Source: an uncultured bacterium
Lineage (GTDB): Bacteria > Auribacterota > JACPWU01
Direction: 5' to 3'
Assembly: GCA_964640155.1 (NCBI GenBank)
Contig: CAZXEQ010000006.1
Coordinates: 9,013 to 41,012 of the forward strand
Length of the DNA: 32,000 nucleotides
Position numbers and translations under genes: made by a program. Under the pieces are notes generated by a model. That model was given only the letters and a program-made list of their open reading frames with translations. It did no database searches and was not told the DNA's origin. Positions 1-21,847 of the stretch are shown here, one piece after another (the stretch's first letter is position 1; the number at the start of each line of letters is the position of its first letter).

Positions 1-55
1 CCTCACCTTCAATCCCTCCCCGGGTGTTACCATCGGTATGAATGATGATACTTTT
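1..55 (+). repeat. Copy 1 of an exact 55-nt direct repeat (partner at 742-796)
   Basis: Base-for-base identity cctcaccttcaatccctccccgggtgttaccatcggtatgaatgatgatactttt. Identity ends at nt 56 vs 797 (c vs g). Confidence 0.95.
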
Positions 56-1456
56 CAGGTAAATAATACTTTTACTTGGAGCGAAGGTCAGATTTCTGGG
101 GGGACGATTAAAGTGATTAAAGATCTCACTTATGATGCCAATGTCGATGGCGGTAATGGTTCTTCAGGTACTCTTCATTTGGCTCCTACCACCACTAAAA
201 CTTATACTCTTCCTGCATCTGCTCTTGTTCCCTCTTTCATTGTGGATACTAATGCTACGGTTAATACAGATGCAGATACCACGACTACTTTTGAAGGAAC
301 GATTCAAAATGTTGCGGGAACTTTAAATTTCAATGGCAGTGCTACGGTTGCTGGCACCACTACTCTATCAGGTGACTCTTCTACTACTTTAGCCAGTTCT
401 AAAACTCTTACATCCAGTAGTGATTTTAATCTTCAAGGTACTACCACTTCTTTTACTCTTTCCTCTTCTTCTACTTTTTCTACCTCAGGGACTTTTACTC
501 AGACAGGAGGGACTTTTACTTCTAATAATGCTGCTGTGACTTTCAACTATGTGGTAGACATCCAATCTGGAACTTTTAATTTATCTTCTGCAACTACTAC
601 CTTCAATGGCTATGCTCTTTTTAATGTCAGTGGTTCGGCTGATGCTACCATTAATCACAACAATGGCTCGGTTGTTGTCAGTCCTACAGGTAATATCGAT
701 TTCTATGCCGGTCCGGGTGCGGCTACCATTACTCTTTATAACCTCACCTTCAATCCCTCCCCGGGTGTTACCATCGGTATGAATGATGATACTTTTGAAG
801 CTGAAGGAAATCTTATTCTGAATGAAGGGTTTTTAAATTCCGGTGCCTTACGTTCGAAAGGAAATGTGACTGTTGGAACTGACTTTGATGGAGGAACTTT
901 CACTTCTCTCAAATTCATTGGAAGTAGCAATCAGAATTTTGATCTTACAGGAAACACAGGAGTTATTAACGCTGATATTACCATTAATAAATCGGCAGGA
1001 GAGGTCACACTTTTATCAGCACTTGTGATGGATGCAACTAATCAGGATCTATTTATCACTTCTGGAACTTTTAATTTATTTGGTCACAATTTGGATGTTA
1101 CTGGGGACAGTGGAACAATGGTCATTGATGCTGCTGGAACACTTCAACTACAAGGAAACGAAACCATCTCGGGAGGACCTGATAAGAACAGTGGAACTGT
1201 TATTTACAATGGAACAGAAAGTTATACAACTTCGCTAGCAGCAGGTAACACATATACTCACCTTACCTTTAATGGTTCTGGAGGCATCTGGGAACCTGAT
1301 GGAACTGTAAATGTGGAAGGAGATTTAACCATTGGAAATGGAATCTTAGATATCGATGGACAAGATCTTACAGTGAAAGGGACTTTTTCTAATGATGGAA
1401 CTTTAAGAGCTCAAGGAAATGAAACCATCTCGTTGGCCTCTAGCAATTCGGAAACC
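2..1456 (+). other. Beta-helix-like repeat region I of the giant protein
   Basis: Recurrent short motifs GTFT/GTFN/GTLN, NxxG and QGNETIS (twice, 264 nt apart). Very high Thr/Ser/Gly/Asn content. A ~247-aa unit is implied by the 741-nt repeat spacing. Confidence 0.5.
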
Positions 1457-4400
1457 AATTTATTTCTTTTTCATTTAAATAATGATCTTACTGATAGCGG
1501 CGCCCAAAATAAAACAGCTTCTTTGGGAGGAAGTGCTTCTTACACTGCTTCTGGAAAATACAGCGATGCAGTAAGCCTCGATGGAAGTGGTTACGTTGCT
1601 GTCAGTGATATGAATATGTCCACCACTCAAAGCTATACTGCCATGGCATGGTTCAAAGCTTCGGCGTTAGGCAGCAGCAACAATCAAATCATTGACACAA
1701 GAGCTTCAGGTTTTACAATACCTCTTCGTATGTTTATAAATAATGGAGAATTTGCCTGTTCCATTGAAACAGCAGGGGCCACCTACGCAACAGCAACATC
1801 AACCATTACCACTAACACCTGGTATCATGGGGCTTGTGTTTATAATTCAACTACACGCGTTTTATCTGCCTATCTTGATGGTACTTTTATTGGAAGTGTG
1901 ACCATTCCAGCTACAGATGTTTCTAGTACAGAATTTCATATAGGTGATGACCCTACTTTCAGCGGAGAAGGATGGACAGGGCTTATTGATGATGTGGTTG
2001 TTTATCCAAGAGTTCTAACGCCCACACAAATCAATACAGCCTACTCTTCTTCTTCAGAACATACTTACCTTACACTAACAGCGTATGATAATAATTCAGG
2101 AACTTTTGAATATGATGGATCTTCTAGCTATAGTTCTCTCTCAGGAGGAAATGATTATTATCATCTTGAAATTGATGGATCTGGAAGCTTCACACACACA
2201 AACACTTTAAATGTAGCAGGAAATTTAACCATTGCTCAGGGAACTTTGAACAGCAATGGACAAAATATTAACTTGAGTGGGAATTGGAATAATTCAGGAA
2301 CATATACCAGCGGCTCAAACACTGTGACCTTTGAAGGTCCTAACACTCAAACTCTCACATCGGGAGGGACAGGGACAGGCCAAGATTTTAATAATATCAC
2401 CATTTCAAAAGCATTGGGAACCGTTTCTCTACAAACAAACCCTCTTGATGTAGATGGAAATTTTACTTTAGATTCTGGGACTTTTTCTCAAGGGGATTTG
2501 ACCATAACAGTAGGTAATTTTATTATGAATAATGGAACATTTACAGGGGGTTCAGCTGCTGTTACTGTCAACACAGATTTCACACTTTCTGGAGGAGCGT
2601 TTACAAGCACCTCCAATACTTTAAATGTCTCAGGAGATTTTTCTCACACGGCAGGCACGTTTTTACATAATTCAGGAACTGTATCGCTATCTGGAGCAGA
2701 TCAAGATATTACGGGATCAACGACATTTTATCATTTCTCAAAAATTGTAGCTTCCTCCGCTGCTTTAAATTTTGAATCAGACTCTATTACAACTGTTGAA
2801 GGAACTTTAACACTCAAGGGTGCTGCAAGCAACCTCTTAAGCATTCGATCAAGCTCAGTAGGAACTCAAGCTAAAATTGATCCTCAAGGACCTAGAGTCA
2901 TTGAATATTTAGATGTCAAAGACAGTAACAATCTTACTTTACCTCAAATCTCCTGTGTAACAGGATGTATTAACTCTGAGAATAATCTTCAGTGGAATTT
3001 TACAGCCCCTACCATTGGCTTTACAACAACATCTACCAGTGGTTCTGAAAGTGTTACTCCTATTAGTATTGGAATTACATTATCGGAAAGCATTGATCAA
3101 ACAGTAACCGTTTCTTATGCAACTTCAGGAGGAACAGCAACAGGCAGTGGAACAGATTATACTTTACCCTCAGGAACAGCAACAATCGCTGCAGGAAGCA
3201 CAACCACAAATATTTCATTGGCAGTGGTAAATGATTCGACCGATGAATCTAATGAAACAGTGGCCATCACGCTTTCAAATCCAATCAATGCAACATTGGG
3301 AGCCAATACAATTCATACTTATACTATTCTTGATAACGACGATACGGTTGATCCTACACTAGATACAGACGGGGATGGATTAACGGATCAAGAAGAAGAA
3401 ATATTGGGAACAAATCCCAACAGTTCTGATACGGATGGAGACGGAATGCCTGATTTAGAAGAAGCCATTTCAGGAACTGATTCTAATGATTCCTCATCAT
3501 ACAATTCTATTCTCTTTCAAGATGATTTCTCAAATAATGCCAACCCCAAGGGATGGACTGAAAACTCTGACACAAGCAACAATGTTTCTTGGAATATCTC
3601 CGCAGGTAAACTAAATATGACAGCCACCAGTTCTGGCTACGCTTATTACAGCCCATCTACCTTGAACAGTTATATCTCTAGAGTTAATAAAATAGCCATT
3701 ACTTATGATGTTCAATTTTCAAATAGCAATGGTTGGGGTGGTCTTTGGTTATGGGGTGTATATATTGATATTAATAGGTTTCGTTCAGGAGTTAGAGATG
3801 TTTTAGCAGAGATAAGTACAGGCGTAGGAATGTATCACTTCTACAGTGGTATTCCTGACAATAATCAACATCACGTATTGATTCTTGTTTCAAAAGCATC
3901 TCCTTATTATAAAATGAGTCTTTACATAGACACCAAACCTATTTTCATTGATGAATCCATTGAAATCAGTTCTTTTCTGAGTAGTAGAGTCGGTCTTGTA
4001 TCCCCTTATTCAGCAGCAAATGCCATCTATGATAATTTTACAATTTGGGCTAATCCCAATCCAGCTTTGCTCCCCTTCTCAGAAGACTTTAGTACAGAAA
4101 GTTATGGATTATGGACCAGTTCTGGCAATAGCAATATTATATGGGATTTTAATGCCGGAAATCTTCAATCACAAAACTCTGTGTCTGGCTCAGGTTATGG
4201 CTATCTCCAACATGCATTAATGGATATTTCAGGAAAAGACGTTGTGATTGAATATGACACAAGATTCTTAGGAGGGACAACTTGGGGAGGAGTTTTGTGG
4301 AGAGGAATTGGTTGTGATGTAAATGTTAATCGTTCAGGGTGGAGAGATGGATCTTTTGAAGGGTATAATGGAACTTATCAGTTCTACACAGGGCTTTCAG

Positions 4401-5980
4401 CGAATGTACCTCATCATGTAACTTTGATGATTCGCCAAGATTCGCCTTTCTATTTATCTACTCTTTATGTGGACTCAACTCAAATTTTCAGCAATGAACC
4501 TATTCAGGTCAGTTCATTCCCCAATAAAACGATAGGATTTATATCCAATTATTTTGATGGAACTATTCTACGTGATAGTTTAGAGGTTCATGCCGCAGAT
4601 AATGGAGATAATTTAGGGCCTGTGTTTCTTCCTACTTCCAACAAAAATGTCAATATAGGTTCTGATCTAAGCTTTCAAATTGCCGCCGTAGATCCTAATT
4701 CGGATGCGATCACTTATTCTTCAACAAGTCTTCCATCAGGCTCATCTCTAGATAATAGTACAGGAATATTCTCATGGACTCCTTCCTCCACAGGAGTGTC
4801 TTCTGTAACTTTTGAAGCCAGTGATGGAATAGCAACAGATTCCCAAACAGTGAACATCTATGTGAATACTGCTACTGCAACAGATTCAACACTTCACCAA
4901 CAAACTTTTAGTGGAATTTCTATACCTAACAATTGGGATGAAACAGACACTAGCGCCAATGTCGATTGGTCTATCTCCAGTGATCAACTCAGAGCCACTG
5001 TTGTGGGATCAGGAGGTTATTCTTTTTTAACTCCTAATAACTGGAATGTCTCTGCAATCAGTGATGTAGCTATAGAGTATGATATCACCATGCCAGCTAA
5101 TTCATGGGGTGGATTCACTTATCGGGGTATTCATATTGATGTGAACACCATTCGATCAGGAATAAGAGATGGAGCATATGAAGGGCATGCCGGAACCTAT
5201 CAATGGTATTCAGGAATTTCAGCCAATACTCAACATCATATCATTGCTATTATCCATCAAGCTTCTCCTTATTATACTTGTGATCTTTATGTGGATGGAA
5301 AACCTTTCTTTAAAAATGAGCCTATTCAAGTGAGCAGTTTTCCTGATAATTTAGTAGGATTTGCATCCAATTATTATTCAGGCTCTGTCTACTTTGATAA
5401 TCTTACTGTAAAAGATATCTCTTTATTTTTAAGTGCTTCTTCGGACTTTGTAGCGTCTTATCTTTTTAATTCAAACAGTTTAAATAATTTCATTATTTCT
5501 GGATCTACAACGAATGTGATTTGGTCTATGAGCAATGGGGAGTTCATTTCCACTGTGGTGGGTTCAGGGGGATATTCTCATATTTATCCCTATGATTTAG
5601 ATATAGCCGGGAAAACTATTACGGTTGAATATGATGTTCTTTTCAATAAAACAGGCGATGGTTGGGGAGGATTTGATTATCGGGGTGTTCATATTGATAT
5701 CAATCCCAATCGTCATGGTATTAGAGACGGATCTTTCGAAGGATATTCTGGTACTTATAATTGGTATACAAGTACTATGACCAAAGGAGCCCCTCATCAT
5801 GTAATTTTAACTTTTACCCCTTCTTCTCCTTACACGCTGGTTAATCTCTCTGTGGATGGCAACTCTATTTTTACCAATGAACCTATTCAAGTTTCTTCTT
5901 TCCCTAACAAATCCGTAGGGTTTGCTTCTAATTATTTTTCTAGTAACATCTTTTGGGATAATTTAACTGTCATGGAATAA
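2..5980 (+). CDS. Giant modular cell-surface/adhesin-like protein, 5'-truncated by the window edge (at least 1992 aa in window)
   Basis: Frame 2 is open from nt 2. The peptide LTFNPSPGVTIGMNDDTF precedes and spans the ATG at 38 and recurs in frame at 742-796, so the ATG at 38 is internal. Stop TAA is at 5978-5980. The T/S/G/N-rich GTF/GTL repeats look like a parallel beta-helix, followed by LamG, Calx-beta, TSP3-like and Ig-like modules and four jelly-roll-like modules. No C-terminal sorting signal (LPXTG, PEP-CTERM or T9SS-like) is recognisable. Confidence 0.85.
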   Translation, partial: LTFNPSPGVTIGMNDDTFQVNNTFTWSEGQISGGTIKVIKDLTYDANVDGGNGSSGTLHLAPTTTKTYTLPASALVPSFIVDTNATVNTDADTTTTFEGTIQNVAGTLNFNGSATVAGTTTLSGDSSTTLASSKTLTSSSDFNLQGTTTSFTLSSSSTFSTSGTFTQTGGTFTSNNAAVTFNYVVDIQSGTFNLSSATTTFNGYALFNVSGSADATINHNNGSVVVSPTGNIDFYAGPGAATITLYNLTFNPSPGVTIGMNDDTFEAEGNLILNEGFLNSGALRSKGNVTVGTDFDGGTFTSLKFIGSSNQNFDLTGNTGVINADITINKSAGEVTLLSALVMDATNQDLFITSGTFNLFGHNLDVTGDSGTMVIDAAGTLQLQGNETISGGPDKNSGTVIYNGTESYTTSLAAGNTYTHLTFNGSGGIWEPDGTVNVEGDLTIGNGILDIDGQDLTVKGTFSNDGTLRAQGNETISLASSNSETNLFLFHLNNDLTDSGAQNKTASLGGSASYTASGKYSDAVSLDGSGYVAVSDMNMSTTQSYTAMAWFKASALGSSNNQIIDTRASGFTIPLRMFINNGEFACSIETAGATYATATSTITTNTWYHGACVYNSTTRVLSAYLDGTFIGSVTIPATDVSSTEFHIGDDPTFSGEGWTGLIDDVVVYPRVLTPTQINTAYSSSSEHTYLTLTAYDNNSGTFEYDGSSSYSSLSGGNDYYHLEIDGSGSFTHTNTLNVAGNLTIAQGTLNSNGQNINLSGNWNNSGTYTSGSNTVTFEGPNTQTLTSGGTGTGQDFNNITISKALGTVSLQTNPLDVDGNFTLDSGTFSQGDLTITVGNFIMNNGTFTGGSAAVTVNTDFTLSGGAFTSTSNTLNVSGDFSHTAGTFLHNSGTVSLSGADQDITGSTTFYHFSKIVASSAALNFESDSITTVEGTLTLKGAASNLLSIRSSSVGTQAKIDPQGPRVIEYLDVKDSNNLTLPQISCVTGCINSENNLQWNFTAPTIGFTTTSTSGSESVTPISIGITLSESIDQTVTVSYATSGGTATGSGTDYTLPSGTATIAAGSTTTNISLAVVNDSTDESNETVAITLSNPINATLGANTIHTYTILDNDDTVDPTLDTDGDGLTDQEEEILGTNPNSSDTDGDGMPDLEEAISGTDSNDSSSYNSILFQDDFSNNANPKGWTENSDTSNNVSWNISAGKLNMTATSSGYAYYSPSTLNSYISRVNKIAITYDVQFSNSNGWGGLWLWGVYIDINRFRSGVRDVLAEISTGVGMYHFYSGIPDNNQHHVLILVSKASPYYKMSLYIDTKPIFIDESIEISSFLSSRVGLVSPYSAANAIYDNFTIWANPNPALLPFSEDFSTESYGLWTSSGNSNIIWDFNAGNLQSQNSVSGSGYGYLQHALMDISGKDVVIEYDTRFLGGTTWGGVLWRGIGCDVNVNRSGWRDGSFEGYNGTYQFYTGLSANVPHHVTLMIRQDSPFYLSTLYVDSTQIFSNEPIQVSSFPNKTIGFISNYFDGTILRDSLEVHAADNGDNLGPVFLPTSNKNVNIGSDLSFQIAAVDPNSDAITYSSTSLPSGSSLDNSTGIFSWTPSSTGVSSVTFEASDGIATDSQTVNIYVNTATATDSTLHQQTFSGISIPNNWDETDTSANVDWSISSDQLRATVVGSGGYSFLTPNNWNVSAISDVAIEYDITMPANSWGGFTYRGIHIDVNTIRSGIRDGAYEGHAGTYQWYSGISANTQHHIIAIIHQASPYYTCDLYVDGKPFFKNEPIQVSSFPDNLVGFASNYYSGSVYFDNLTVKDISLFLSASSDFVASYLFNSNSLNNFIISGSTTNVIWSMSNGEFISTVVGSGGYSHIYPYDLDIAGKTITVEYDVLFNKTGDGWGGFDYRGVHIDINPNRHGIRDGSFEGYSGTYNWYTSTMTKGAPHHVILTFTPSSPYTLVNLSVDGNSIFTNEPIQVSSFPNKSVGFASNYFSSNIFWDNLTVME
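742..796 (+). repeat. Copy 2 of the exact 55-nt direct repeat (partner at 1-55)
   Basis: Identical 55-mer in the same reading frame, 741 nt (247 codons) downstream of copy 1. Confidence 0.95.
1460..2043 (+). other. LamG / concanavalin-A-like lectin domain (Laminin_G_3-like)
   Basis: LNNDLTDSG...ASLGG...G.YSDAVSLDGSGYV...YTAMAWFK...WYHGACVY...LSAYLDG...HIGDD...F.G.IDDVVVYPRVLT. This is the typical LamG_3 signature (candidate-value, 'W.H.a.vyd', 'lY.DG', 'iD.v.iy.r.Ls'). Confidence 0.7.
2050..3000 (+). other. Beta-helix-like repeat region II with a capping segment
   Basis: YYHLEIDGSG...LNVAGNLTIAQGTLNSNGQNINLSGNWNNSGTYTSGSNTVTFEG...FNNITISK..., ending IRSSSVGTQAKIDPQG..IEYLDVKDSNN. I recognise this repeat grammar from large bacterial surface proteins but cannot name the family. 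Confidence 0.45.
3005..3343 (+). other. Calx-beta domain
   Basis: TVTVSYATSGGTATGSGTDYTLPSGTATIAAGSTTTNISLAVVNDSTDESNETVAITLSNPINATLG...HTYTILDND. This matches the classic Calx-beta pattern (GTA..G.DY....GT..F..G.t...i.i.i.dD...E..E.f.v.Ls......lg). Confidence 0.8.
3350..3499 (+). other. Thrombospondin type-3-like Ca-binding repeats (2 copies)
   Basis: DTDGDGLTDQEEEILGTNPNSSDTDGDGMPDLEEAISGTDSND, i.e. two DxDxDGxxDxxE repeats. Confidence 0.75.
3509..4048 (+). repeat. Jelly-roll-like module copy A (most diverged), ConA-like/DUF1080-like (tentative)
   Basis: FQDDFSN...GWTE.....VSWNISAGKL...AITYDVQF...GWGGLWLWGVYIDINRFRSGVRD...HHVLILV...SPYYKMSLYID...F..ESIEISSF...VGL.S......YDNFTIW. It aligns with copies B-D. 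Confidence 0.6.
4064..4590 (+). repeat. Jelly-roll-like module copy B
   Basis: FSEDFS...WTSSG..NIIWDFNAGNL...VIEYDTRF...TWGGVLWRGIGCDVNVNRSGWRDGSFEGYNGTYQFYTG...HHVTLMI...SPFY.STLYVDS.QIFSNEPIQVSSFPNKTIGFISNYF. Confidence 0.6.
4616..4864 (+). other. Ig-like / cadherin-like (putative Ig, He_PIG-type) domain inserted between module copies B and C
   Basis: GPVFLP...VNIGSDLSFQIAAVDPNSDAITYSSTSLPSGSSLDNSTGIFSWTPSSTGVSSVTFEASDGIATDSQTVNIYV. This is the typical 'LP.G.sld..TG..sWtP' bacterial Ig-like pattern. Confidence 0.65.
4889..5413 (+). repeat. Jelly-roll-like module copy C
   Basis: ...NWDETDTSANVDWSISSDQL...AIEYDITM..NSWGGFTYRGIHIDVNTIRSGIRDGAYEGHAGTYQWYSG...HHIIAII..ASPYYTCDLYVDGKPFFKNEPIQVSSFPDNLVGFASNYYSGSVYFDNLTV. 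Confidence 0.6.
5447..5977 (+). repeat. Jelly-roll-like module copy D (C-terminus of the protein)
   Basis: ...NVIWSMSNGEF...TVEYDVLF...DGWGGFDYRGVHIDINPNRHGIRDGSFEGYSGTYNWYT....HHVILTF..SSPY.LVNLSVDGNSIFTNEPIQVSSFPNKSVGFASNYFSSNIFWDNLTV. Confidence 0.6.
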
Positions 5981-13098: not shown

Positions 13099-14325
13099 AT
13101 GAAAAAAAGTATTCTCCTCTCCCAATGGATTTTACCTGTTTGCAAACCACCCATTCAAGATGGAGCTATTGTTTTAGAAAATGGAAAAATCTCGGATGTT
13201 GGAGAAGCAAAAAAAATTCTAAAAGAAAATCCAAAATTGGAGGTAGAAGATTTGGGACCATCCATTCTTCTGCCAGGCTTAGTCAATGCCCATACCCATT
13301 TAGAATATTCATGTTTATATGAGCAAATTAAACCTCAGAAAAATTTTTCAGGTTGGCTTCTTGAAATCATTCAACTCAAAAAAAATATTTCTAAAAACCA
13401 AATTGTTTTAGGCATTCAAAAGCATATTATTTCTTTAAAAAAATTGGGAATTATCCTTGTAGGAGAAGTTACAAATACAGGCCTTGCAGCTCCTCTCCTT
13501 GAAGAACAAAAACTCTCAGGTAATATTTATTATGAGCTTGTCGGAGATTGTTCTTTTCAAGAATATTTAAATACCGAGAAAAAACTAAAAGAAGAAGCAC
13601 CTTCATTTCATATTTCTCCAGCCTGTCACGCTCCTCATACTGTCCCATTAGACATTCTCAAAAAAGTTAAAGCATATATTCATCAAAAGAGACTTTATAC
13701 TTCCATTCATCTCTCAGAATCCATGGATGAAAATAAATGGATTCAAAAACTGAATGGGTCTTTCTCTGATCTTATTCAAACCAAAGCTCTTTTACAAAAT
13801 CCTTTTTTTGGGAAAGGACTTAGTCCCACTCAATATTTATATAAAAATAATTTCTTATCCCCTAAGGTTCTTTGCGTTCACTGTGCACATCCCCTTCCCC
13901 AAGACTTTTCTCTACTTAAAAAAACCGGCTCTTACATTGCACTCTGCCCACGCAGCAATCAATACACAGGAACCGGTCTTCCTCCTATTAAAAAACTTTT
14001 AAAATATAAAATACTTCTTTGCCTTGGAACAGATAGTCTGGCGAGTAATGATGATTTAGATTTATGGAATGAAATGAGATTTTTTAAAAAACACTTCCCT
14101 TTTCTTACTCTTCCCTTTATTCTACGGATGGCTACGCTTCATGGAGCCCATGCCCTAGGTTTTGGAAATGAATATGGATCCATTGAAAAAGGTAAAAAAG
14201 CAAAATTAATTTTTATTAAAACAGGAAAAAAACAGGTTCAAGACCCTTATCAATTCTTAATGGCAGAAAAACATGAAATCTTTCATTACAATTCTCACGC
14301 GTTACGCTCGATTAATTCGATTTAG
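13099..14325 (+). CDS. Amidohydrolase of the MTA/SAH / aminodeoxyfutalosine deaminase type
   Basis: Metal ligands HxH in GLVNAHTHLEYS, IHLSESMDE (the H.aE...E signature of this deaminase group), VHCAH, and LGTDSLASNDDLDLWNEM (compare the lGTD..aSNn.ldm..Em pattern). Its position directly upstream of quinone prenylation and methylation genes supports a futalosine-pathway role. Confidence 0.7.
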   Translation: MKKSILLSQWILPVCKPPIQDGAIVLENGKISDVGEAKKILKENPKLEVEDLGPSILLPGLVNAHTHLEYSCLYEQIKPQKNFSGWLLEIIQLKKNISKNQIVLGIQKHIISLKKLGIILVGEVTNTGLAAPLLEEQKLSGNIYYELVGDCSFQEYLNTEKKLKEEAPSFHISPACHAPHTVPLDILKKVKAYIHQKRLYTSIHLSESMDENKWIQKLNGSFSDLIQTKALLQNPFFGKGLSPTQYLYKNNFLSPKVLCVHCAHPLPQDFSLLKKTGSYIALCPRSNQYTGTGLPPIKKLLKYKILLCLGTDSLASNDDLDLWNEMRFFKKHFPFLTLPFILRMATLHGAHALGFGNEYGSIEKGKKAKLIFIKTGKKQVQDPYQFLMAEKHEIFHYNSHALRSINSI

Positions 14326-15127
14326 CCACAGCATCTTTGCTCTCCCCTTTGCATTTGCAAGCGTTCTTCTCGTGTCAAAATATTTTCAAATTCGCTCCAT
14401 TAAAATTCTATGGATCCTCATTGCTATGATTTCTGCTCGCAGTGCCGCCATGGCTTTTAATCGTATGATCGATTCAAAAATTGACGCCTTAAATCCTAGA
14501 ACTGTAAAAAGAGAAATACCTCAAGGCATTATTAGCTGGAAAGGGGCATTAACACTTGCTGTTTCTTCTTCTCTTCTATTCATTTATTCTACTTTTCAAC
14601 TCAACATTCTTTGCGCCATTCTCTCCTTGCCAACACTTATTCTTTTTATATTTTATCCTTACACCAAACGCTTCACTTGGCTTTCTCATTTATTTCTAGG
14701 TTTGAGTTTAGGCCTGGCACCTCTAGGAGCGTGGGTTGCCTTTACCGAAAGCTTGCAAGGTCCTATTTTACTATTGGGGTTGAGTGTTCTCTTTTGGGTT
14801 GCAGGATTTGACATTATCTATTCTACACAAGATGTTGAGTTTGATAAATCTCAAGGTCTCTTTAGCATTCCAGCTCAATTTGGCATTCAAAAAGGTCTTA
14901 AAATAGCCATGATTTTTCACGGAATTGCTTTAAGTCTTCTTATTTGGACAGGCATTCTTTTTCATCTTTCTTTTGCTTATTTTTTAGGATGTTCATTTAT
15001 TGGAGCAATAATGCTTTACGAACATTCTTTGGTAAATCCAACTGATCTTTCAAAAGTTCAAACCGCTTTCAATGCCAATGGTTGGATCAGTCTTCTTTAT
15101 CTTGTGTCTACATGGATGGGATTATGA
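14273..15127 (+). CDS. UbiA-family aromatic polyprenyltransferase (MqnP-like, menaquinone via futalosine; alternatively 4-hydroxybenzoate polyprenyltransferase)
   Basis: About 8-9 TM helices, Asp-rich motif NRMIDSKIDALNPRT and a second motif YSTQDVEFD. The N-terminus IRFSHSIFALPFA resembles the MqnP-type subgroup rather than E. coli UbiA (R.DKPIG). It overlaps the upstream deaminase gene by 53 nt. Confidence 0.8.
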   Translation: MKSFITILTRYARLIRFSHSIFALPFAFASVLLVSKYFQIRSIKILWILIAMISARSAAMAFNRMIDSKIDALNPRTVKREIPQGIISWKGALTLAVSSSLLFIYSTFQLNILCAILSLPTLILFIFYPYTKRFTWLSHLFLGLSLGLAPLGAWVAFTESLQGPILLLGLSVLFWVAGFDIIYSTQDVEFDKSQGLFSIPAQFGIQKGLKIAMIFHGIALSLLIWTGILFHLSFAYFLGCSFIGAIMLYEHSLVNPTDLSKVQTAFNANGWISLLYLVSTWMGL

Positions 15128-15729
15128 CACAAAAAAGACTCGTTATTGCTATCACAGGTGCCAGTGGTATGCTGTACGCTGAAAGACTTCTAAAAGCCCT
15201 TTGTCAAGAAAATCATATCGTTGAACTTATCATGTCAGAGAATGCAAGAGATCTCTTACATTTTGAAATTGGTCTTAAAAAATCTCAAAACATGAAAGAT
15301 TTTTTAGAAAAAAAATATAATCTCTCTTTAAACCCCAAGACCTTCAAAATATTTTCAAACGATGATTTGGCCGCGCCTCCTTCCTCTGGCACGCATCATC
15401 ATGATGGCATGGTGATTATCCCTTGCTCCATGAAAACACTTTCAGCTGTAGCCACAGGAGCCTCTCGAGCTCTCATTGAACGAGCTGCGGATGTTTGCTT
15501 AAAAGAATCTAGAAAATTAATTCTGGTGACACGCGAAACACCTTTGAGTCGAATTCACTTAGAAAACATGCTTCGTGTCACCGATGCTGGCGGGAAAATC
15601 ATGCCTTGTGATCCTGGATTTTATATCAAACCCAAAAAAATTGAAGATCTTGCTGATTTCATCGCAGGTAAAGTTTTAAATCTTTTAGGAATTGAACATC
15701 TGCTTTTTAAACCATGGGGAAATGAATAG
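15124..15729 (+). CDS. ubiX: Flavin prenyltransferase UbiX (prenyl-FMN synthase; MqnL-like)
   Basis: RLVIAITGASG...IIPCSMKTL.A.A.G.....IERAADV.LKE.R.LILV.RETPL. ATG 15124 overlaps the UbiA stop (ATGA at 15124-15127). The ORF-track start at 15082 lies inside the UbiA gene. Confidence 0.9.
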   Translation: MTQKRLVIAITGASGMLYAERLLKALCQENHIVELIMSENARDLLHFEIGLKKSQNMKDFLEKKYNLSLNPKTFKIFSNDDLAAPPSSGTHHHDGMVIIPCSMKTLSAVATGASRALIERAADVCLKESRKLILVTRETPLSRIHLENMLRVTDAGGKIMPCDPGFYIKPKKIEDLADFIAGKVLNLLGIEHLLFKPWGNE

Positions 15730-15776
15730 TCAACGGTTGCCAGTTTTCGGTCTCCAGTAAAACCTTCTCCAAAAAT

Positions 15777-16445
15777 ATGAATAACAAAACAAATATAGCA
15801 AACATGTTTAGTCGAATTGCCGAGCGTTATGATTTGGCCAATGATTTATTAAGTCTCGGGACCCATCGTTTATGGAAAAAAAAAGCCCTTCGACTCTTAA
15901 ATCTTCAACCGAATGACTGTCTTTTAGATCTTTGTTGTGGAACGGGAGATTTTTTAATTCAAGTTCATCAAGGATACGCCATAGGAGCTGATCTTTCTCA
16001 GACCATGCTAAAAGAAGCACATAAAAGAAATTCCCATTTACCCCTTATATGTGCGGATGGAGAAATCCTTCCCTTCCATAATACCTCATTTAACAAAGTT
16101 ATTATCGGTTTTGGCATTCGTAACATCCCTCAAACAGTCAAAGCCTTGCAGGAAATACATCGTGTTTTAAAATCAGAGGGAAGACTTGTCATTTTAGAGT
16201 TTTCAAAACCACGATCGAAATTCTTCTCAAAATTTTATCTTTTTTATCTTAATAAGATTCTTCCTATTATTGGAGGCTGGATTTCAAAAGAAAAATCTGC
16301 CTACGAATACCTCGCTCAAACCATTCAAAGCTTTCCAGACGGAAAAGATTTTTTAAAACTAATGGAAATAAGTGGTTTTACAAAAATAAATGATACTCGT
16401 TTGAACTTTGGAATTGCTTCGATTTACGAAGGGAACAAGCAATAA
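15777..16445 (+). CDS. ubiE: Demethylmenaquinone/ubiquinone C-methyltransferase UbiE/MenG
   Basis: MFSRIAERYDLANDLLSLGTHRLWKK (the UbiE N-terminal signature), the SAM motif LDLCCGTGD, and ILEFSKP...YL..SI..FP. Confidence 0.88.
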   Translation: MNNKTNIANMFSRIAERYDLANDLLSLGTHRLWKKKALRLLNLQPNDCLLDLCCGTGDFLIQVHQGYAIGADLSQTMLKEAHKRNSHLPLICADGEILPFHNTSFNKVIIGFGIRNIPQTVKALQEIHRVLKSEGRLVILEFSKPRSKFFSKFYLFYLNKILPIIGGWISKEKSAYEYLAQTIQSFPDGKDFLKLMEISGFTKINDTRLNFGIASIYEGNKQ

Positions 16446-16538: not shown

Positions 16539-19328
16539 CTAAAAACCATCTTCACTTGGAGGTGTCTTGACCGAAGCGGAGGGCTTTTCTGAACCAGAAG
16601 GTGCGACTTGAGTCTGAGTCTTTTGAATCTCAGGGCTTTGAGTTTGCAATGGAGTTTGAGTAGAAGTCTGTGATTGAGAAACCTCAGTCTTTGAAGAAGT
16701 TACAGATGTCGAGAAACCATTCATACTCACAATATAATCTCTAATCGCTCTTGTTTGCCAAACAGGATCCGCCAAAAAAGCATCTAACTCTGATCCAAAT
16801 AAATTTTCAAAGTATTGTTTTGTGTCTTTAAACTGAGGAGTTTTTAAAAGATTCGGGACAAAAGAAACACGCTTATCTCCCATTTTTGGAAAATTCGTCG
16901 GCATTTTTGTTCCAGGCTGTATTACTTCTGGTTCTAAAATCCAGCGAGCAATCCATTCATGCCTGAGACGATCTTTAGCTAAACCTAAATTAGGTCCCAA
17001 ATTCACCACTTGAGACCCTTTAGTAGATGGATCCATACTCACAGGGTGACAGGACATACATTTAAACATTTCAAAAAGTTTTTCCCCTGCTTTACGTTCA
17101 CGTTCAGGAACTTGAACATCTCCAAAATAATCAAATTCATAAGGATACTTTGCATCTGATAGTGATGAAAAATATGCCACAATGCTTGAAGCATCTTCAT
17201 CTGAAAGATTAAATTTCGGCATCCGCACCGTAAGCCAGGGTCTAATTAAAATAGGATTTTTCAAGAAGCTAAAAAGCCACTCAGGTTGAACTTTCGCACC
17301 TTCTCCCTCTAAACTAGGAGCAATTGCACTGCCCTTACCTTCAATGACATGACAGCCTGTACAGTTCAAGTCTCGAACTAAATTGCGCCCTTTCTCGATA
17401 GCATCTTCTTTTTTGGAAAGATTCTTTTTAAACTCGGACGGAATCTCCTTTTCTTCGCCACGGAAACTCGTCAACAAAGTAACCAGAGAATTGGCCTCTT
17501 CATCCGACAGATGAAAATTGGGCATCTTTTGTTCGATACGCTCCGTTGCATAAACTTGAGGATTTTTAATTTTATTAAAAGTCCAATCCCAAAGCGTATG
17601 AGGAATATCGTGCGCATAACCGAAAAAGAGAAGACTTAAATCCTTCGCTCCAAATGCTGTAAGTTCTGCACCCACGCGAGGTCTATTTTCAAGACCCGGA
17701 ACATTATGGCATCCAAAACATCCAAGGGACCCCATCAAATTCTTTCCCTTTTTTGCAAGGCCCACATCCACTGTTTCTGCCTTCGATGGATCCAGCCCCC
17801 AACTGTCATTTTTCAAAGTTATTAAATAACTGATCAAATGGGCAATTTCATCATCTTTAAGCCGCATGTTAGGCATTTTTCCATGAGGTAAATATTCACG
17901 AGGATTTTTTAACCAACGATACAGCCATTCTGGTCGAACTTTATTCCCCACATGTGTTAAATCAGGGGCAAAGGTTTCTCCTTCTTCACCTATTTTGTGA
18001 CAAGCAATACAAGCCAAATCTTTTACCAATTTTTTCCCTTCTTCTAGAGAACCCTTTTCTAAGGCCAATTTCTCATCACTCGTCATAGGAACGCTAGAGC
18101 TCAAACTTCCTAAATAATGTGCCATAGCCTTTGCTTCATCTTCTGTTACCTTAAATTGAGGCATACGTGTTGTTGGACTTAAACTTTTGGGATCTTTAAT
18201 CCAACGAGCCATCCAGTCCACAGTTGTTTTTTCGGAAATTTTGTCTAGTTCTGGTCCAACTTTTTTCGCATTTTCATATCCAGAAGCCAAATGACACCCC
18301 GAACAACCTAATTGGCCAAACAAGACTTTTCCTTGAGTTAATGTCGCGGCCTCTGGGACCTCCACTGTAGCATGACACTTCACGCAGGAGCTTTCTACCT
18401 TGTGATCCCTTAACAAAGGAAACTCCCAATGATGTACCTCTCCATGCGCATCCTTTACCGTTAAGGCAGATCCTTGTCCTCCATGGCAGGACGTACATCC
18501 AAATTTCTCTGGAGGGTGTTTTTTTAACAAAATATCAAGCTTGGGATGAGTTCGAAAGGGTTGTTCGTATTTTTGAGGATCTTCAAATCCGGGACGATCA
18601 ATCGCCAAATGACAGGTTTGACAACGATCTACTTTGTTTAAATCTTGGACAACAATCTGTTCAATTTTAGGACTTTTACGTTTTATATCTTTTACTTTTT
18701 TCTCAAGCATTTCGAGCTTGGTAGTCATCTGAATGATTTCTTTTTCAGTGTTTGAGACTTCTTCATCATGTGCTTGTACAATTCTCCACAAAGGAGCACT
18801 TTGATTCTCTACCTCTTTAATCTTAAGAGAAAGCTCATCTAATTCTTTTTGGTGTTGATCCACCTCCTGCTTTCGCCTATCAATATCTTTACTGTTTTCT
18901 AGTTTTGCTTTTTCAAAAAGATAATACACCGCATCAAAACGACTTTTCATGAATTGAGATTCTTTACCTAAATCTTCTAACTTATATTTTAGATCAGTGA
19001 GTTGATTTTTTGCTTGGATATAAGCTTTTTGTGCTTGAGAGTCTTGGGGACCCCCCTGAAGGGTTTTTAATTTTTCCTGAAGTGAACGATAAATTTTTTG
19101 CACTGCTTCTGATTCTAAATTTTGTTTCTCTATATTAAATTCCTCTGTCGCTTTTTCCAGCTCTAATTTAAAAAAAGTTTTTTGGAAATCTTTCCATGGA
19201 CGTCGATCAAAAGTCTCATCCCAAATCGCAAAAAGAGTAAGAAAAATAAGGCAAGCGACCGTAATAAAAAAAGGGATGCGAAAAGATTGCTCTTCTGTAG
19301 GTTTCTTTCGCCATTCATTTAAGCCCAT
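16539..19328 (-). CDS. Membrane-anchored octahaem cytochrome c: N-terminal TM helix, ~190-aa coiled-coil stalk, trihaem module, five tandem class-I monohaem domains and an S/T/Q/P-rich tail
   Basis: Eight CxxCH motifs: CQTCH, CTSCH, CVKCH, CSGCH, CIACH, CFGCH, CTGCH, CMSCH. The last five each sit in a repeated G..L...L.C..CH....G...P.L......V.P.W...W...P.......MP.F.L.D.E...L..YL unit with a distal MP (Met ligand). TM segment: IPFFITVACLIFLTLFAIW. Last gene of the Rieske/cyt b operon. Confidence 0.88.
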   Translation of the reverse strand: MGLNEWRKKPTEEQSFRIPFFITVACLIFLTLFAIWDETFDRRPWKDFQKTFFKLELEKATEEFNIEKQNLESEAVQKIYRSLQEKLKTLQGGPQDSQAQKAYIQAKNQLTDLKYKLEDLGKESQFMKSRFDAVYYLFEKAKLENSKDIDRRKQEVDQHQKELDELSLKIKEVENQSAPLWRIVQAHDEEVSNTEKEIIQMTTKLEMLEKKVKDIKRKSPKIEQIVVQDLNKVDRCQTCHLAIDRPGFEDPQKYEQPFRTHPKLDILLKKHPPEKFGCTSCHGGQGSALTVKDAHGEVHHWEFPLLRDHKVESSCVKCHATVEVPEAATLTQGKVLFGQLGCSGCHLASGYENAKKVGPELDKISEKTTVDWMARWIKDPKSLSPTTRMPQFKVTEDEAKAMAHYLGSLSSSVPMTSDEKLALEKGSLEEGKKLVKDLACIACHKIGEEGETFAPDLTHVGNKVRPEWLYRWLKNPREYLPHGKMPNMRLKDDEIAHLISYLITLKNDSWGLDPSKAETVDVGLAKKGKNLMGSLGCFGCHNVPGLENRPRVGAELTAFGAKDLSLLFFGYAHDIPHTLWDWTFNKIKNPQVYATERIEQKMPNFHLSDEEANSLVTLLTSFRGEEKEIPSEFKKNLSKKEDAIEKGRNLVRDLNCTGCHVIEGKGSAIAPSLEGEGAKVQPEWLFSFLKNPILIRPWLTVRMPKFNLSDEDASSIVAYFSSLSDAKYPYEFDYFGDVQVPERERKAGEKLFEMFKCMSCHPVSMDPSTKGSQVVNLGPNLGLAKDRLRHEWIARWILEPEVIQPGTKMPTNFPKMGDKRVSFVPNLLKTPQFKDTKQYFENLFGSELDAFLADPVWQTRAIRDYIVSMNGFSTSVTSSKTEVSQSQTSTQTPLQTQSPEIQKTQTQVAPSGSEKPSASVKTPPSEDGF

Positions 19329-19354
19329 CGTTCAATTTCCCTTTGTCCTTGGAG

Positions 19355-20227
19355 TTATACGTTAAACCAGGGGGTTACCCAGATATATTTGATATTAAAT
19401 GCATAGCGAAGAAACATTTTGATAGGAAGTCCCATCATACTCAAGAAAAGAAACACAAAAATAGAAAATCTCATCCATCCCATTTCTTGAAGCAACGGAC
19501 TTTTACGCCATCTCAAAATCAAATACCATAAAAAGCCTAAAGAATAATATGCTCCCAAAACAGCAGCACCAAACAAATTAGCAACCAGAGGAGAACGAAT
19601 TTTTAAAAGATCTGAGAGATTGACATTTGCTACTGCTACTACTTTATGAGGATCCCATTCTTCCGTAATCCAAAATAAATTCCATCCTGGACCTCGTAAA
19701 AAAGTTCCCACTATAATCATGGCCACCCACAACCCTAAAAAACCAAAACAAAAAATTAAAATAGCCTTCTTTCTTTCCTTAAAAGTGTAATAACCATTTC
19801 CCAATGGATTACGATCAATGTAAGGAATGGCCATCAACCCTACAATAATGAGTGTTGGCAAAACAACTCCTGCAATCCATGGATCAAAATAAACAAGCAT
19901 TTCCTGAAGTCCCAGAAAATACCATGGCGCTTTGCTCGGATTAGGTGTCACAGCAGGATTGGCAGGTAGTTCAAGCGGAGCATCTATGCCTAAAGACCAT
20001 GCAAAAAGAATGAGCAAAGTAATCAAAACAGACATGAACTCGGCTCGAACTAGATAAGGGAAAACAAAAACCTTATCTACTTCTTTACGAGGATCCGGCT
20101 TAACTCGATAACGGTCATTATGGAATGCCTGTTTTAAAGCCAAACTCAAAAAGAAAACCACAAGAAATAACATTCCAACAATAGGAATATTATCTGGCTG
20201 AGTAATAATTTTTAGAAAATGATTCAT
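19355..20227 (-). CDS. Cytochrome b C-terminal domain / subunit IV-like protein of a b6-type Rieske/cyt b complex (enlarged, ~6 TM, 290 aa)
   Basis: Qo-loop region NPSKAPWYFLGLQEMLVYF aligns with the PEWY(F) motif of cytochrome b / subunit IV. It is multi-TM and lies immediately downstream of the b6-like gene. Confidence 0.75.
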   Translation of the reverse strand: MNHFLKIITQPDNIPIVGMLFLVVFFLSLALKQAFHNDRYRVKPDPRKEVDKVFVFPYLVRAEFMSVLITLLILFAWSLGIDAPLELPANPAVTPNPSKAPWYFLGLQEMLVYFDPWIAGVVLPTLIIVGLMAIPYIDRNPLGNGYYTFKERKKAILIFCFGFLGLWVAMIIVGTFLRGPGWNLFWITEEWDPHKVVAVANVNLSDLLKIRSPLVANLFGAAVLGAYYSLGFLWYLILRWRKSPLLQEMGWMRFSIFVFLFLSMMGLPIKMFLRYAFNIKYIWVTPWFNV

Positions 20228-20232
20228 AGTTT

Positions 20233-20379
20233 AAAACCGTAGATAGCAATTCGTAATTCGCAGTTCGTTAAAATTAGTAGCTCGTAGTTCGCAATTCATA
20301 GTTCGTTGAAAACAGCTATTGGGTTAAGATAATTTTAGTTTTTATCTTTTGCGATCTACGATTTACTAACTACGAACTA
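20233..20379. repeat. Inverted tandem-heptamer element 1: about 9 copies of (T/C)A(G/A)TTCG, a 46-nt AT-rich spacer, then 4 copies of the reverse complement CGAnCTA
   Basis: Read directly. 20240-20267 is TAGATAG CAATTCG TAATTCG CAGTTCG. 20278-20305 is TAGCTCG TAGTTCG CAATTCA TAGTTCG. 20352-20379 is CGATCTA CGATTTA CTAACTA CGAACTA. The 28-nt arms are complementary at 22/28 positions. The element fills almost the whole cyt b6 / subunit IV intergenic gap. Confidence 0.85.
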
Positions 20380-20386
20380 CTTGTTT

Positions 20387-21253
20387 TTAAAGAGGACCTG
20401 ATATTCCTCCATCCTTCCTCACTCTCCAAAAGTGAATCGTCACAAAAACCAAGAGGAAAAATGGCAAAGCAATACAATGCAATACATAAAATCTCAAAAG
20501 CGTTGGAGCACCTACTTGTGTACCTCCCAAAAGTAAGAAGCGCACATCATTATCGGGTTGCATTCCAAGTTGAGGACCAAAAGGTCCTTCATGACCTAAA
20601 AGAGGCGTTGCACGGGCCATGTTTGTTCCCACAGTCACTGCCCAAATCGCTAGCTGATCCCAAGGAAGAAGATAGCCCGTAAAACTTAAAATCATTGTTA
20701 GAACTAAAAGAATGACACCCACACCCCAGTTAAATTCACGAGGTGGTTTGTAAGAACCGGTCATGAAGACACGAAACATATGAAGCCACACGGTGATAAT
20801 CATGCCATGTGCGGACCATCGATGCATATTTCTCAAAAGCATTCCAAAGGGAACATCAAATTGGAGATATTTCATGTCGCTATAAGCGTATTCAGCTGTA
20901 GGTCGATAATAAAACATCAAAGCAACACCGGTCACCAGAAGAATCAAGAAAAGAAAGAAACTTAAACCACCCATACACCAAGTATGCTTAAACTTGACTG
21001 CACCCCTGAGAACTTTTACAGGATGCAAATGTAAAAATACATTTCCAATAATCGCCAAAGTTCGATTTTTAGGTGTGTCTTTATAATCATGGCGAAACAT
21101 AGAACGCCAAACTTGCGTTTTACGCAATTTTTGACGCAAAGTTTCTTTCACAATAGGCGGCTTAGCAGTCTCCACAGGTTTTGATGCCGTCGGTGCTGCA
21201 CCCGTAGAAGCTGGTGATGATGTTGGTGATACAGGCTTATTATCTTCTGGCAT
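20387..21253 (-). CDS. Cytochrome b6-type (N-terminal, 4-helix) cytochrome b with a P/A/S/T-rich N-terminal extension
   Basis: Helix B haem ligands H-x13-H ([15 protein letters not shown]). Helix D H-x14-H ([16 protein letters not shown]), which is the b6/Firmicute-type spacing. WCMGG aligns with the YC(L/F)GG Cys that binds haem ci covalently. The split-gene organisation has a separate subunit IV. Confidence 0.88.
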
Positions 21254-21283
21254 TGATTTACCTTATCTTGATATTGATTTATA

Positions 21284-21847
21284 CTATATTTTGAGTAGCG
21301 CTTCTGGTTTATTCCACTCCCCTTTTTCAAATAGAAAAAGAGTGCCCTTATCAATCAATAATTGTCCATCGTCTGCAAGTGTAATTTTTACACGATCTAA
21401 AGCCCGAGGCGCAGGTCCTTCAAAATTAACCCCATCTCGACGAAAACCACTTCCATGACAGGGACATTTAAATTTATCCTCTACCGATAACCATACAGGC
21501 GTACAACCTAAATGGGTACACTTCGCAAGAAGGGCGTAAAAACCTTCCGAAGTTCGTGCAATCCATACACGCTGTTCAGAAGCCCAACGTGTGCTGATTT
21601 CTCCTGGAGGATATTCTTGAGGAAAACCCGCTTTAAAAATATTGGAAGGTTCAAAAAGCACTCGAGGGAAAAGATATCGCACAAGGCCCACCAGCCAGGA
21701 GCTCATCACAAGGCCAAAGAAATACCAGCCCGCTTTTACAAAAAAATCCCGTCGCGTATAAAGAGAAGCATCATCTTGAGACTGGATTTTCTTTTTTAAA
21801 TCTGGCTTTTTAACTTCCGCCGTAACATTCACTGGCTCAGTTGTCAT
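21284..21847 (-). CDS. Rieske [2Fe-2S] subunit with a Tat signal/anchor
   Basis: Box I CTHLGC, box II CPCHGS, twin-arginine motif TRRDFFVKAG followed by a hydrophobic helix. First gene of the operon. Confidence 0.9.
   Translation of the reverse strand: MTTEPVNVTAEVKKPDLKKKIQSQDDASLYTRRDFFVKAGWYFFGLVMSSWLVGLVRYLFPRVLFEPSNIFKAGFPQEYPPGEISTRWASEQRVWIARTSEGFYALLAKCTHLGCTPVWLSVEDKFKCPCHGSGFRRDGVNFEGPAPRALDRVKITLADDGQLLIDKGTLFLFEKGEWNKPEALLKI

Follow-up and report, generated by a model that had tools for sequence, protein, structure and literature searches.

Four ancient jelly-roll modules form a conserved C-terminal cassette, and putative glycan-binding tail, in proteins of uncultured bacteria

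A four-module cassette at the end of a giant protein

We found that a giant protein encoded in a 32,000-nucleotide stretch of DNA from an uncultured bacterium (GenBank assembly GCA_964640155.1, contig CAZXEQ010000006.1, positions 9,013 to 41,012; hereafter, the window) ends in four old and divergent copies of a single module. The modules arose by ancient duplication and, together with a pair of TSP3 repeats and an immunoglobulin (Ig)-like domain, form a fixed C-terminal unit, TSP3-TSP3-A-B-Ig-C-D. This unit recurs behind unrelated heads in proteins of a few related bacteria. Based on fold class, architecture, and analogy to known systems, we favor, with moderate confidence, a non-catalytic role for the cassette: that of a multivalent glycan-binding tail by which its carrier proteins would be targeted or anchored.

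The open reading frame (ORF) of the giant protein runs from 38 to 5980 on the + strand (stop codon at 5978-5980) and is 1980 amino acids (aa) long as called. Its frame is already open at base 2 of the window, so the gene may in fact begin farther upstream. The four modules, each of ~176-181 aa, lie on the + strand within the final 823 residues of the protein: module A at 3509-4051 (aa 1158-1338), module B at 4067-4594 (aa 1344-1519), module C at 4889-5416 (aa 1618-1793), and module D at 5441-5977 (aa 1802-1980), which ends at the C-terminus. A first-pass annotation, made from the DNA sequence alone, had described four modules of ~175 aa over 3509-5977 with exactly these coordinates, and both alignment and BLASTP agree with it. 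That annotation had not mentioned a 98-aa Ig-like domain of the He_PIG type (Pfam PF05345, E = 3e-13; 4595-4888, + strand) that lies between modules B and C. Two bacterial TSP3 repeats of the calcium-binding type (DxDxDGxxDxxE; 3362-3508, + strand; Pfam TSP3_bac, E = 2.4e-10) form a conserved linker directly 5' of module A.

The modules are repeats of one another. Pairwise identity among A-D is 35.8-46.6% for amino acids and 49.4-58.4% for codon-aligned nucleotides. The weakest pair, A and D, had a BLASTP E value of 4e-26 across 163 residues; that is, the repeat is far beyond what is expected by chance. Thirty-seven columns are invariant in all four copies, including WGG, R.G.RD, HH, SP, and E.I..SSF. 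The decapeptide NEPIQVSSFP is identical in module B (4493-4522), module C (5315-5344), and module D (5876-5905) and is encoded by three different codon strings, as had been quoted in the first-pass annotation. Module A, also correctly singled out there as the outlier, reads DESIEISSFL (3950-3979) where the others have NEPIQVSSFP.

Synonymous sites between the copies are saturated. The same codon was used at 214 of the 418 identical residues (M and W excluded), compared to the 199.6 predicted from codon usage alone. In a tree of modules from homologous proteins (described below), all of the A modules and all of the B modules fell into position-specific clades. The C and D modules formed position-specific clades only for the window protein and the homologues P0001 and P0002. 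Across proteins, modules at the same position were 47-52% identical, compared to 39-41% for modules at different positions. Because the modules cluster by position across proteins, these comparisons place the four-fold duplication before the divergence of the cassette proteins and indicate that each position has since kept its own identity. In view of the synonymous saturation and the positional orthology, we rejected a recent duplication and gene conversion as explanations, in line with the earlier proposal that purifying selection has acted on old copies.

A small family without a name

We found no match between the window's modules and any family in Pfam or NCBIfam, even at E <= 10. The suspicion that this is not a named family was thus well founded. 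We used a hidden Markov model (HMM) built from the four copies to search 1.84 billion representative proteins exhaustively. The search returned 56 relatives at E <= 1e-3, 13 of which were at E <= 1e-30, indicating that the family is rare. Most are from bacteria of the Planctomycetes-Verrucomicrobia-Chlamydiae (PVC) group (Chlamydiota, Verrucomicrobiota, and Lentisphaerota) and a few are from archaea. Named sources are metagenome-assembled genomes (MAGs) of Chlamydiota (P0004 and P0064), MAGs of Verrucomicrobiota and Lentisphaerota, and one Thermoplasmata archaeon. For the Era GTPase encoded near the cassette gene in the window, the best named relative is from a Chlamydiota MAG (61% identity), from which the window would probably derive from a deep-branching, Chlamydiota-like PVC bacterium. 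Members that do not have the full cassette contain one module, rarely two, in proteins of 500-4000 aa.

Other searches were less productive. No homologue was returned when the four-copy profile was run in a word-indexed search, a sensitivity artefact, since single-sequence and exhaustive HMM searches did find relatives. A search of GTDB species genomes with the cassette profile gave no confirmed locus, and a related-locus search with P0001 as the query returned single-module PVC relatives only. By these sequence comparisons, the modules define a small family without a name, with ~50 cluster representatives and with no full-length sequence match for the window modules in Pfam, NCBIfam, or the PDB.

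The positions conserved across the family (module C numbering) are F7, W16, W27, L34, G43, Y44, Y64, D65, G74, G75, R79, G80, G91, D94, H116, L133, D136, E144, I146, G157, S160, Y162, D170, and N171. The first-pass annotation had proposed that the conserved HH, RDG, and EG could form a ligand or metal site. The EG..GTY stretch is specific to a sub-group and is not conserved across the family, and it falls in the loop that is predicted with the least confidence in the structural model described below.

The modules are predicted to be ConA-like jelly rolls

We modeled module C with AlphaFold2 (AF2), using the four-copy alignment. The model is all-beta with 16 strands and has a predicted local distance difference test (pLDDT) score of 80.9 and a predicted TM-score (pTM) of 0.81. 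A Foldseek comparison of this model to the PDB gave 235 matches at E <= 0.001. The best 21 matches were all legume lectins (E from 1e-6 to 7e-6; TM-score for the query [TMq], 0.55-0.62). There were also matches to Emp46p (TMq 0.67) and to a legume-lectin domain from M. jannaschii (7elv; TMq 0.64), and others to YesU (galectin-like), a mycobacteriophage fibre domain, and the glycoside hydrolase (GH) family 16 endo-glucanase 3dgt. Overall, the leading matches had E values of ~1e-6, TM-scores of 0.55-0.72, and ~10% identity. Because the matches are led by legume lectins, we assign the modeled fold to the ConA-like beta-jelly-rolls (clan CL0004).

This agrees with the first-pass annotation, which had likened the modules to ConA-like or DUF1080-type jelly rolls and had suggested a Foldseek search with a model of one copy. 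The closest solved folds are those of L-type (legume) lectins, and distant members of the family fall on PF06439, the DUF1080 family. The weak Pfam matches of family members were to PF06439, Laminin_G_3 (LamG_3), TS_C, Laminin_G_2, and CBM_4_9. When 47 family modules were scanned individually, 8 of the 47 matched PF06439 and 7 of the 47 matched Laminin_G_3, with a few on TS_C, CBM_4_9, and Laminin_G_2.

We also modeled the whole cassette. Each domain was folded in the model, with a mean pLDDT of 75 and a pTM of 0.49. Foldseek found local matches only, all of them to proteins bearing lectins or carbohydrate-binding modules (CBMs): the L-lectin adhesin SraP, tandem CBM22, trans-sialidase lectin domains, laminin LG, and BoNT Hc. 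No global architectural match to the whole-cassette model was found in the PDB.

Relation to L-type lectins and to PF06439

The likeness to L-type lectins is found in the predicted structure (Foldseek E ~ 1e-6, TM 0.55-0.67) and also, locally, in sequence. The modules have the pattern vaIEYDv.F....WGG..yrGihIDVNtiRsG where the lectins have VAVEFDTF....WDP..qHIGIDVNSIRS. A search of the PDB with the four-copy profile gave a weak match to legume lectins at this metal-loop segment (43 residues, E = 0.012-0.06), aligning IEYD...WGG..YRGIHIDVNTIRSG of the modules to VEFDT...WDP..HIGIDVNSIRS of the lectin. There was no Pfam match to the legume lectin family (PF00139), and a search with the broader alignment of 47 modules gave 0 matches in the PDB. 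In contrast to the similar fold, identity is ~10%, the modules are ~60 residues shorter than L-type lectins, and their set of metal ligands is incomplete.

The nearest named family is PF06439. DUF1080 and CBM66 are two names for this one domain; CBM66 is non-catalytic, and DUF1080 is expanded in Planctomycetes (PMC5673643). Like the modules, PF06439 domains are ConA-like jelly rolls of ~170-190 aa with a similar strand-by-strand grammar: an N-terminal F..g..gW.....W.v..G.L, a central acidic strand (IEYD in the modules, LEFD in PF06439), a turn with DG/NG, and G.vGf...v.fDN..v toward the C-terminus. The two groups are both expanded in PVC-group bacteria, often inside large extracellular multidomain proteins.

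The window's four modules have no match to PF06439 at E <= 10. The two families meet in P0096, whose module is the most distant relative that we found. This module was retrieved by the four-copy HMM at E = 8.7e-13 and has a full-length match to PF06439 at 44.8-49.6 bits, above the gathering threshold of 26.8 bits. An hhalign comparison of a 15-module profile to the P0096 module gave a probability of 99.3% (E = 4e-20, 159 columns). A second PF06439 domain (P0087, 914-1073) had no hhalign match to the module profile, and the bridge to PF06439 is therefore one sequence, P0096. Since P0096 satisfies both profiles, we place the family, on present sequence comparisons, as a divergent branch adjoining PF06439 within the ConA-like superfamily.

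Differences from PF06439 are apparent by eye. A phmmer search of the PDB with two PF06439-type sequences gave marginal matches to the CBM66 levanase 4b1l (E = 0.054) and to the DUF1080 protein 4jqt (E = 0.071). Compared to 4jqt, the modules keep the strand pattern and have WGG in place of NSG, LDVN in place of FEID, GWRD in place of GGIY, and GF.S.Y in place of ALQ.H. Only the acidic residue of the LEFD/IEYD strand seems to be retained. More generally, the channel motifs of PF06439 are NSG, E.Q/E.D, and LQ.H, whereas the modules have WGG, D.N, GWRD, HH, NEPI, and S.Y. The modules also differ in forming a fixed four-copy C-terminal cassette that is without the context of a 3-keto-glycoside pathway.

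The cassette recurs behind unrelated heads

The complete A-B-Ig-C-D arrangement is present at the extreme C-terminus of six proteins: that of the window (P0060), P0061, P0001, P0002, P0003, and P0004. These proteins end 0-4 residues from module D, and the He_PIG domain is at the equivalent place in all cassette homologues. P0062, P0063, and P0064 are fragments or truncated; P0064 is partial and contains TSP3, module A, and a truncated module B. As in the window, the TSP3 linker precedes module A in P0001, P0002, P0003, P0061, and P0064. P0004 is truncated within module A. That is, TSP3 repeats are found upstream wherever such sequence exists.

The heads of these proteins differ. P0001 and P0002 have a GH14/GH42-like TIM barrel and fn3. 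P0061 has a head of the purple-acid-phosphatase type (Pur_ac_phosph_N and Metallophos, plus other domains), and the partial P0064 has a matrixin M10 metalloprotease and fn3. The head of the window protein consists of beta-helix-like repeats, LamG_3, and Calx-beta. P0001, P0002, and P0064 have signal-peptide-like N-termini. P0001 and P0061, with cassettes that are 60.7% identical, are encoded on the same contig of 501,885 bp. Thus, at least two different enzymes of one genome have this tail.

Single-module relatives are found inside proteins of 1,500-3,200 aa from Verrucomicrobiota or Lentisphaerota that have N-terminal GH42/GH14-like domains and also LamG_3, BNR, and DUF1080 domains. Two loci in Verrucomicrobiota MAGs (L002, 3026-12475; L008, 3254-12982) encode proteins of 3150-3243 aa with an N-terminal GH42/GH14-like domain, LamG_3, beta-propeller, BNR, MAM-like, and DUF1080 domains, and one family module. 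P0001 and P0002, cassette proteins of Chlamydiota, share the GH-like head of these proteins. In the locus of P0001 (L001, 402-3874), the gene for this protein is preceded, on the same strand, by genes for two glycosyltransferases of family 2 and a radical SAM protein with B12 binding, a possible polysaccharide-related neighborhood.

Tandem ConA-like jelly rolls are common at the ends of extracellular proteins. A conserved multi-module tail behind unrelated catalytic heads in one genome is also characteristic of SLH triplets, CWB2 triplets, and tandem CBMs (CBM22-1/CBM22-2), and tandem CBM22 is among the fold matches to the cassette model. In contrast, SLH and CWB2 domains are unrelated to the modules in fold and sequence, and the likeness to them is architectural only.

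A putative glycan-binding tail and its alternatives

Several properties of the cassette lead us to favor a glycan-binding tail. The fold neighbors of the modules are lectin-like, and the position and multiplicity of the modules are typical of CBM arrays. Family members are recurrently partnered with glycosidase-like and other ConA-like domains. In addition, the DUF1080 catalytic motifs (by eye) and a 3-keto-glycoside gene context are absent. A tail of this kind would work as a lectin or CBM array. It would keep enzymes, secreted or at the surface, and adhesin-like proteins attached to a target polysaccharide, which could be a glycan of a substrate or of a host, or belong to the envelope of the cell itself.

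Judging from the model, the ligand would probably be bound on the concave face of the sheet. Conserved polar residues of module C that would lie on adjacent strands are E63, D65, D84, N86, R89, R93, D94, H116, E144, S160, and Y162, and an acidic E/D pair may hold Ca2+, as it does in DUF1080 and the legume lectins. In the AF2 model, the charged residues that are conserved lie on consecutive hairpin strands (59-67, 73-78, 81-86, and 89-94) and on strands 116-124, 138-146, and 156-159. Because they are too polar for a hydrophobic core, the model favors a functional surface, possibly with Ca2+.

Four points weigh against a glycan-binding tail. First, the genomic neighborhood in the window (housekeeping, respiratory, two-component, and Liv transporter genes) gives no functional support. 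Second, the metal ligands of lectins are only partly kept. In ConA and other legume lectins, the Mn2+/Ca2+ ligands are the Glu, Asp, Asn, Asp, and His of the VEFDT...N..WDP...H segment. In the alignment to the modules only the Glu and Asp are retained (IEYD); WDP is replaced by WGG, and the His is Gly in all four copies. Third, the pTM of the whole-cassette model is just 0.49, and therefore the relative arrangement of the modules is not fixed by the model. Fourth, PF06439 includes true enzymes (BT2157), so the modules could conceivably be catalytic.

It is also possible, although we consider it unlikely, that the cassette mediates protein-protein interactions or serves as a structural stalk, for oligomerisation or outer-membrane docking, and has no glycan ligand. 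ConA-like and LamG domains often bind proteins, and matches to the cassette model include laminin LG and neurexin-type domains. The fixed A-B-Ig-C-D order and the positional orthology suggest that the modules are not interchangeable, and a pTM of 0.49 over five domains hints at some packing between modules. However, the best fold matches are sugar-binding lectins, and the family is recurrently found alongside GH-like, LamG_3, CBM_4_9, BNR, and DUF1080 domains. Furthermore, the conserved polar residues are within the strands of each module and not at linkers alone.

The modules might instead be enzymes, either DUF1080-type 3-keto-glycoside lyase/hydratases or GH16-like glycanases, in which case the tail would consist of four catalytic domains. 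PF06439 includes BT2157 (BT2), a lyase/hydratase that depends on metal and has its catalytic channel in a jelly roll. The substrates of BT2157 are 3-keto-glycosides; initially described as a hydrolase, it was subsequently assigned as a 3-keto-alpha-glucoside 1,2-lyase/hydratase, and its metal-containing channel is lined by Glu103, Asn134, Glu164, Gln166, Tyr190, Lys245, Gln273, and His275 (PMC8121099; bioRxiv 10.1101/2024.03.25.586180). In the modules, the conserved charged set E63, D65, D84, R89, R93, D94, H116, and E144 could be catalytic, and the endo-glucanase 3dgt is among the fold matches. Nonetheless, we think that a catalytic role is quite improbable. The window's modules have no match to PF06439. 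By eye, the motifs of 4jqt (NSG, E.D/E.Q, and G.IALQ.H) give way to WGG, D.N, GWRD, and GF.S.Y, and Asn134, Glu164, Gln166, Tyr190, Lys245, Gln273, and His275 of BT2 likewise seem to be replaced. There are no genes for Gfo/Idh/MocA oxidoreductase or sugar-phosphate-isomerase-like partners near the cassette gene in the window. Finally, four tandem copies C-terminal to catalytic heads are typical of CBMs and not of catalytic domains.

It is highly doubtful that the block serves as a signal for secretion or sorting that is read by export machinery and possibly cleaved, like the C-terminal domain of the type 9 secretion system: the block is always at the extreme C-terminus and is common to otherwise unrelated secreted proteins of one genome, but it is ~820-880 aa long (we know of no sorting domain near this size), single family modules lie mid-protein in giant proteins of other PVC bacteria, and P0001, P0002, and P0064 already have N-terminal signal-peptide-like segments.

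By analogy to known anchoring systems, TSP3-A-B-Ig-C-D might be an unrecognised surface-display or anchoring system of environmental Chlamydiota-like bacteria: a dedicated four-lectin address tag in which each position has a distinct and non-redundant role. Such a tag would tether glycosidase-like, phosphatase, metalloprotease, and adhesin-like proteins to a specific envelope or host glycan. Its function would parallel anchoring by SLH or CWB2 domains, although its building blocks would come from a new DUF1080-related lectin family. We offer this idea tentatively, as a possibility that we do not consider strong.

Two things are newly defined here: a small unannotated domain family placed between DUF1080/CBM66 and the L-type lectins, and a conserved multi-domain tail common to several secreted enzymes of poorly known, uncultured Chlamydiota-like bacteria. 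Established concepts are not challenged by the cassette. Should the tail bind a defined glycan, this would point to what these organisms adhere to or consume, and would provide a new lectin/CBM scaffold and grounds for a new Pfam entry or a new CBM entry in CAZy.

Other features of the giant ORF and the window

The product of the giant ORF is a surface-type protein. From the N-terminus it consists of beta-helix-like repeats rich in Thr, Ser, Gly, and Asn, the LamG_3 domain, the Calx-beta domain, the TSP3 repeats, and the four-module cassette. The LamG_3 domain (ConA-like; aa 515-666) is at 1580-2035 on the + strand (Pfam E = 4e-25) and the Calx-beta domain (aa 990-1101) is at 3005-3340 on the + strand (Pfam E = 1.3e-14). 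The Thr/Ser/Gly/Asn-rich repeats, at 38-1579 and 2036-3004, comprise ~840 aa, are nearly cysteine-free, and have no Pfam match. In sequence, they look like the passenger of a parallel beta-helix adhesin. A chlamydial Pmp-type autotransporter is unsupported as an explanation for these repeats; there is no Pfam match for it in the giant ORF. In the Pfam scan of 47 family modules, Chlam_PMP gave a single match, to one module at E = 1.

The N-terminal part of the giant ORF contains an exact 55-nt direct repeat (100% identity) of window positions 1-55 at 742-796. The peptide LTFNPSPGVTIGMNDDTF is present at the window edge and again at aa 236. The 55-nt repeat could reflect a recent internal duplication of a ~247-aa unit, an ORF that extends beyond the window edge, or an artefact of the assembly. 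The Thr/Ser/Gly/Asn-rich region contains another repeat pair, an imperfect one, at 1132-1171 and 1393-1432.

Neighboring genes in the window encode Mrp, Era, SpoU, patatin, thiolase, aldehyde dehydrogenase, UbiA/X/E, cytochromes, a Rieske protein, a two-component system, and a Liv ABC transporter. No match was obtained when the window was scanned for Rfam families and tRNAs, and a 507-aa ORF (29430-30953, + strand) had no Pfam match at E <= 1e-5. A quinone biosynthesis cluster (14273-16445, + strand) encodes a UbiA prenyltransferase, a UbiX-type flavoprotein, and a UbiE/COQ5 methyltransferase; its first two ORFs overlap. A respiratory gene cluster (16539-21847, - strand) encodes a 929-aa multihaem cytochrome c, a split cytochrome b, and the Rieske protein; such a cluster is noteworthy in a genome that has Chlamydiota MAGs as its nearest named relatives. 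The C- and N-terminal parts of the cytochrome b are on separate ORFs, and the cytochrome c has three Cytochrom_C domains along with FixO-like and Cytochrome_C7-like stretches.

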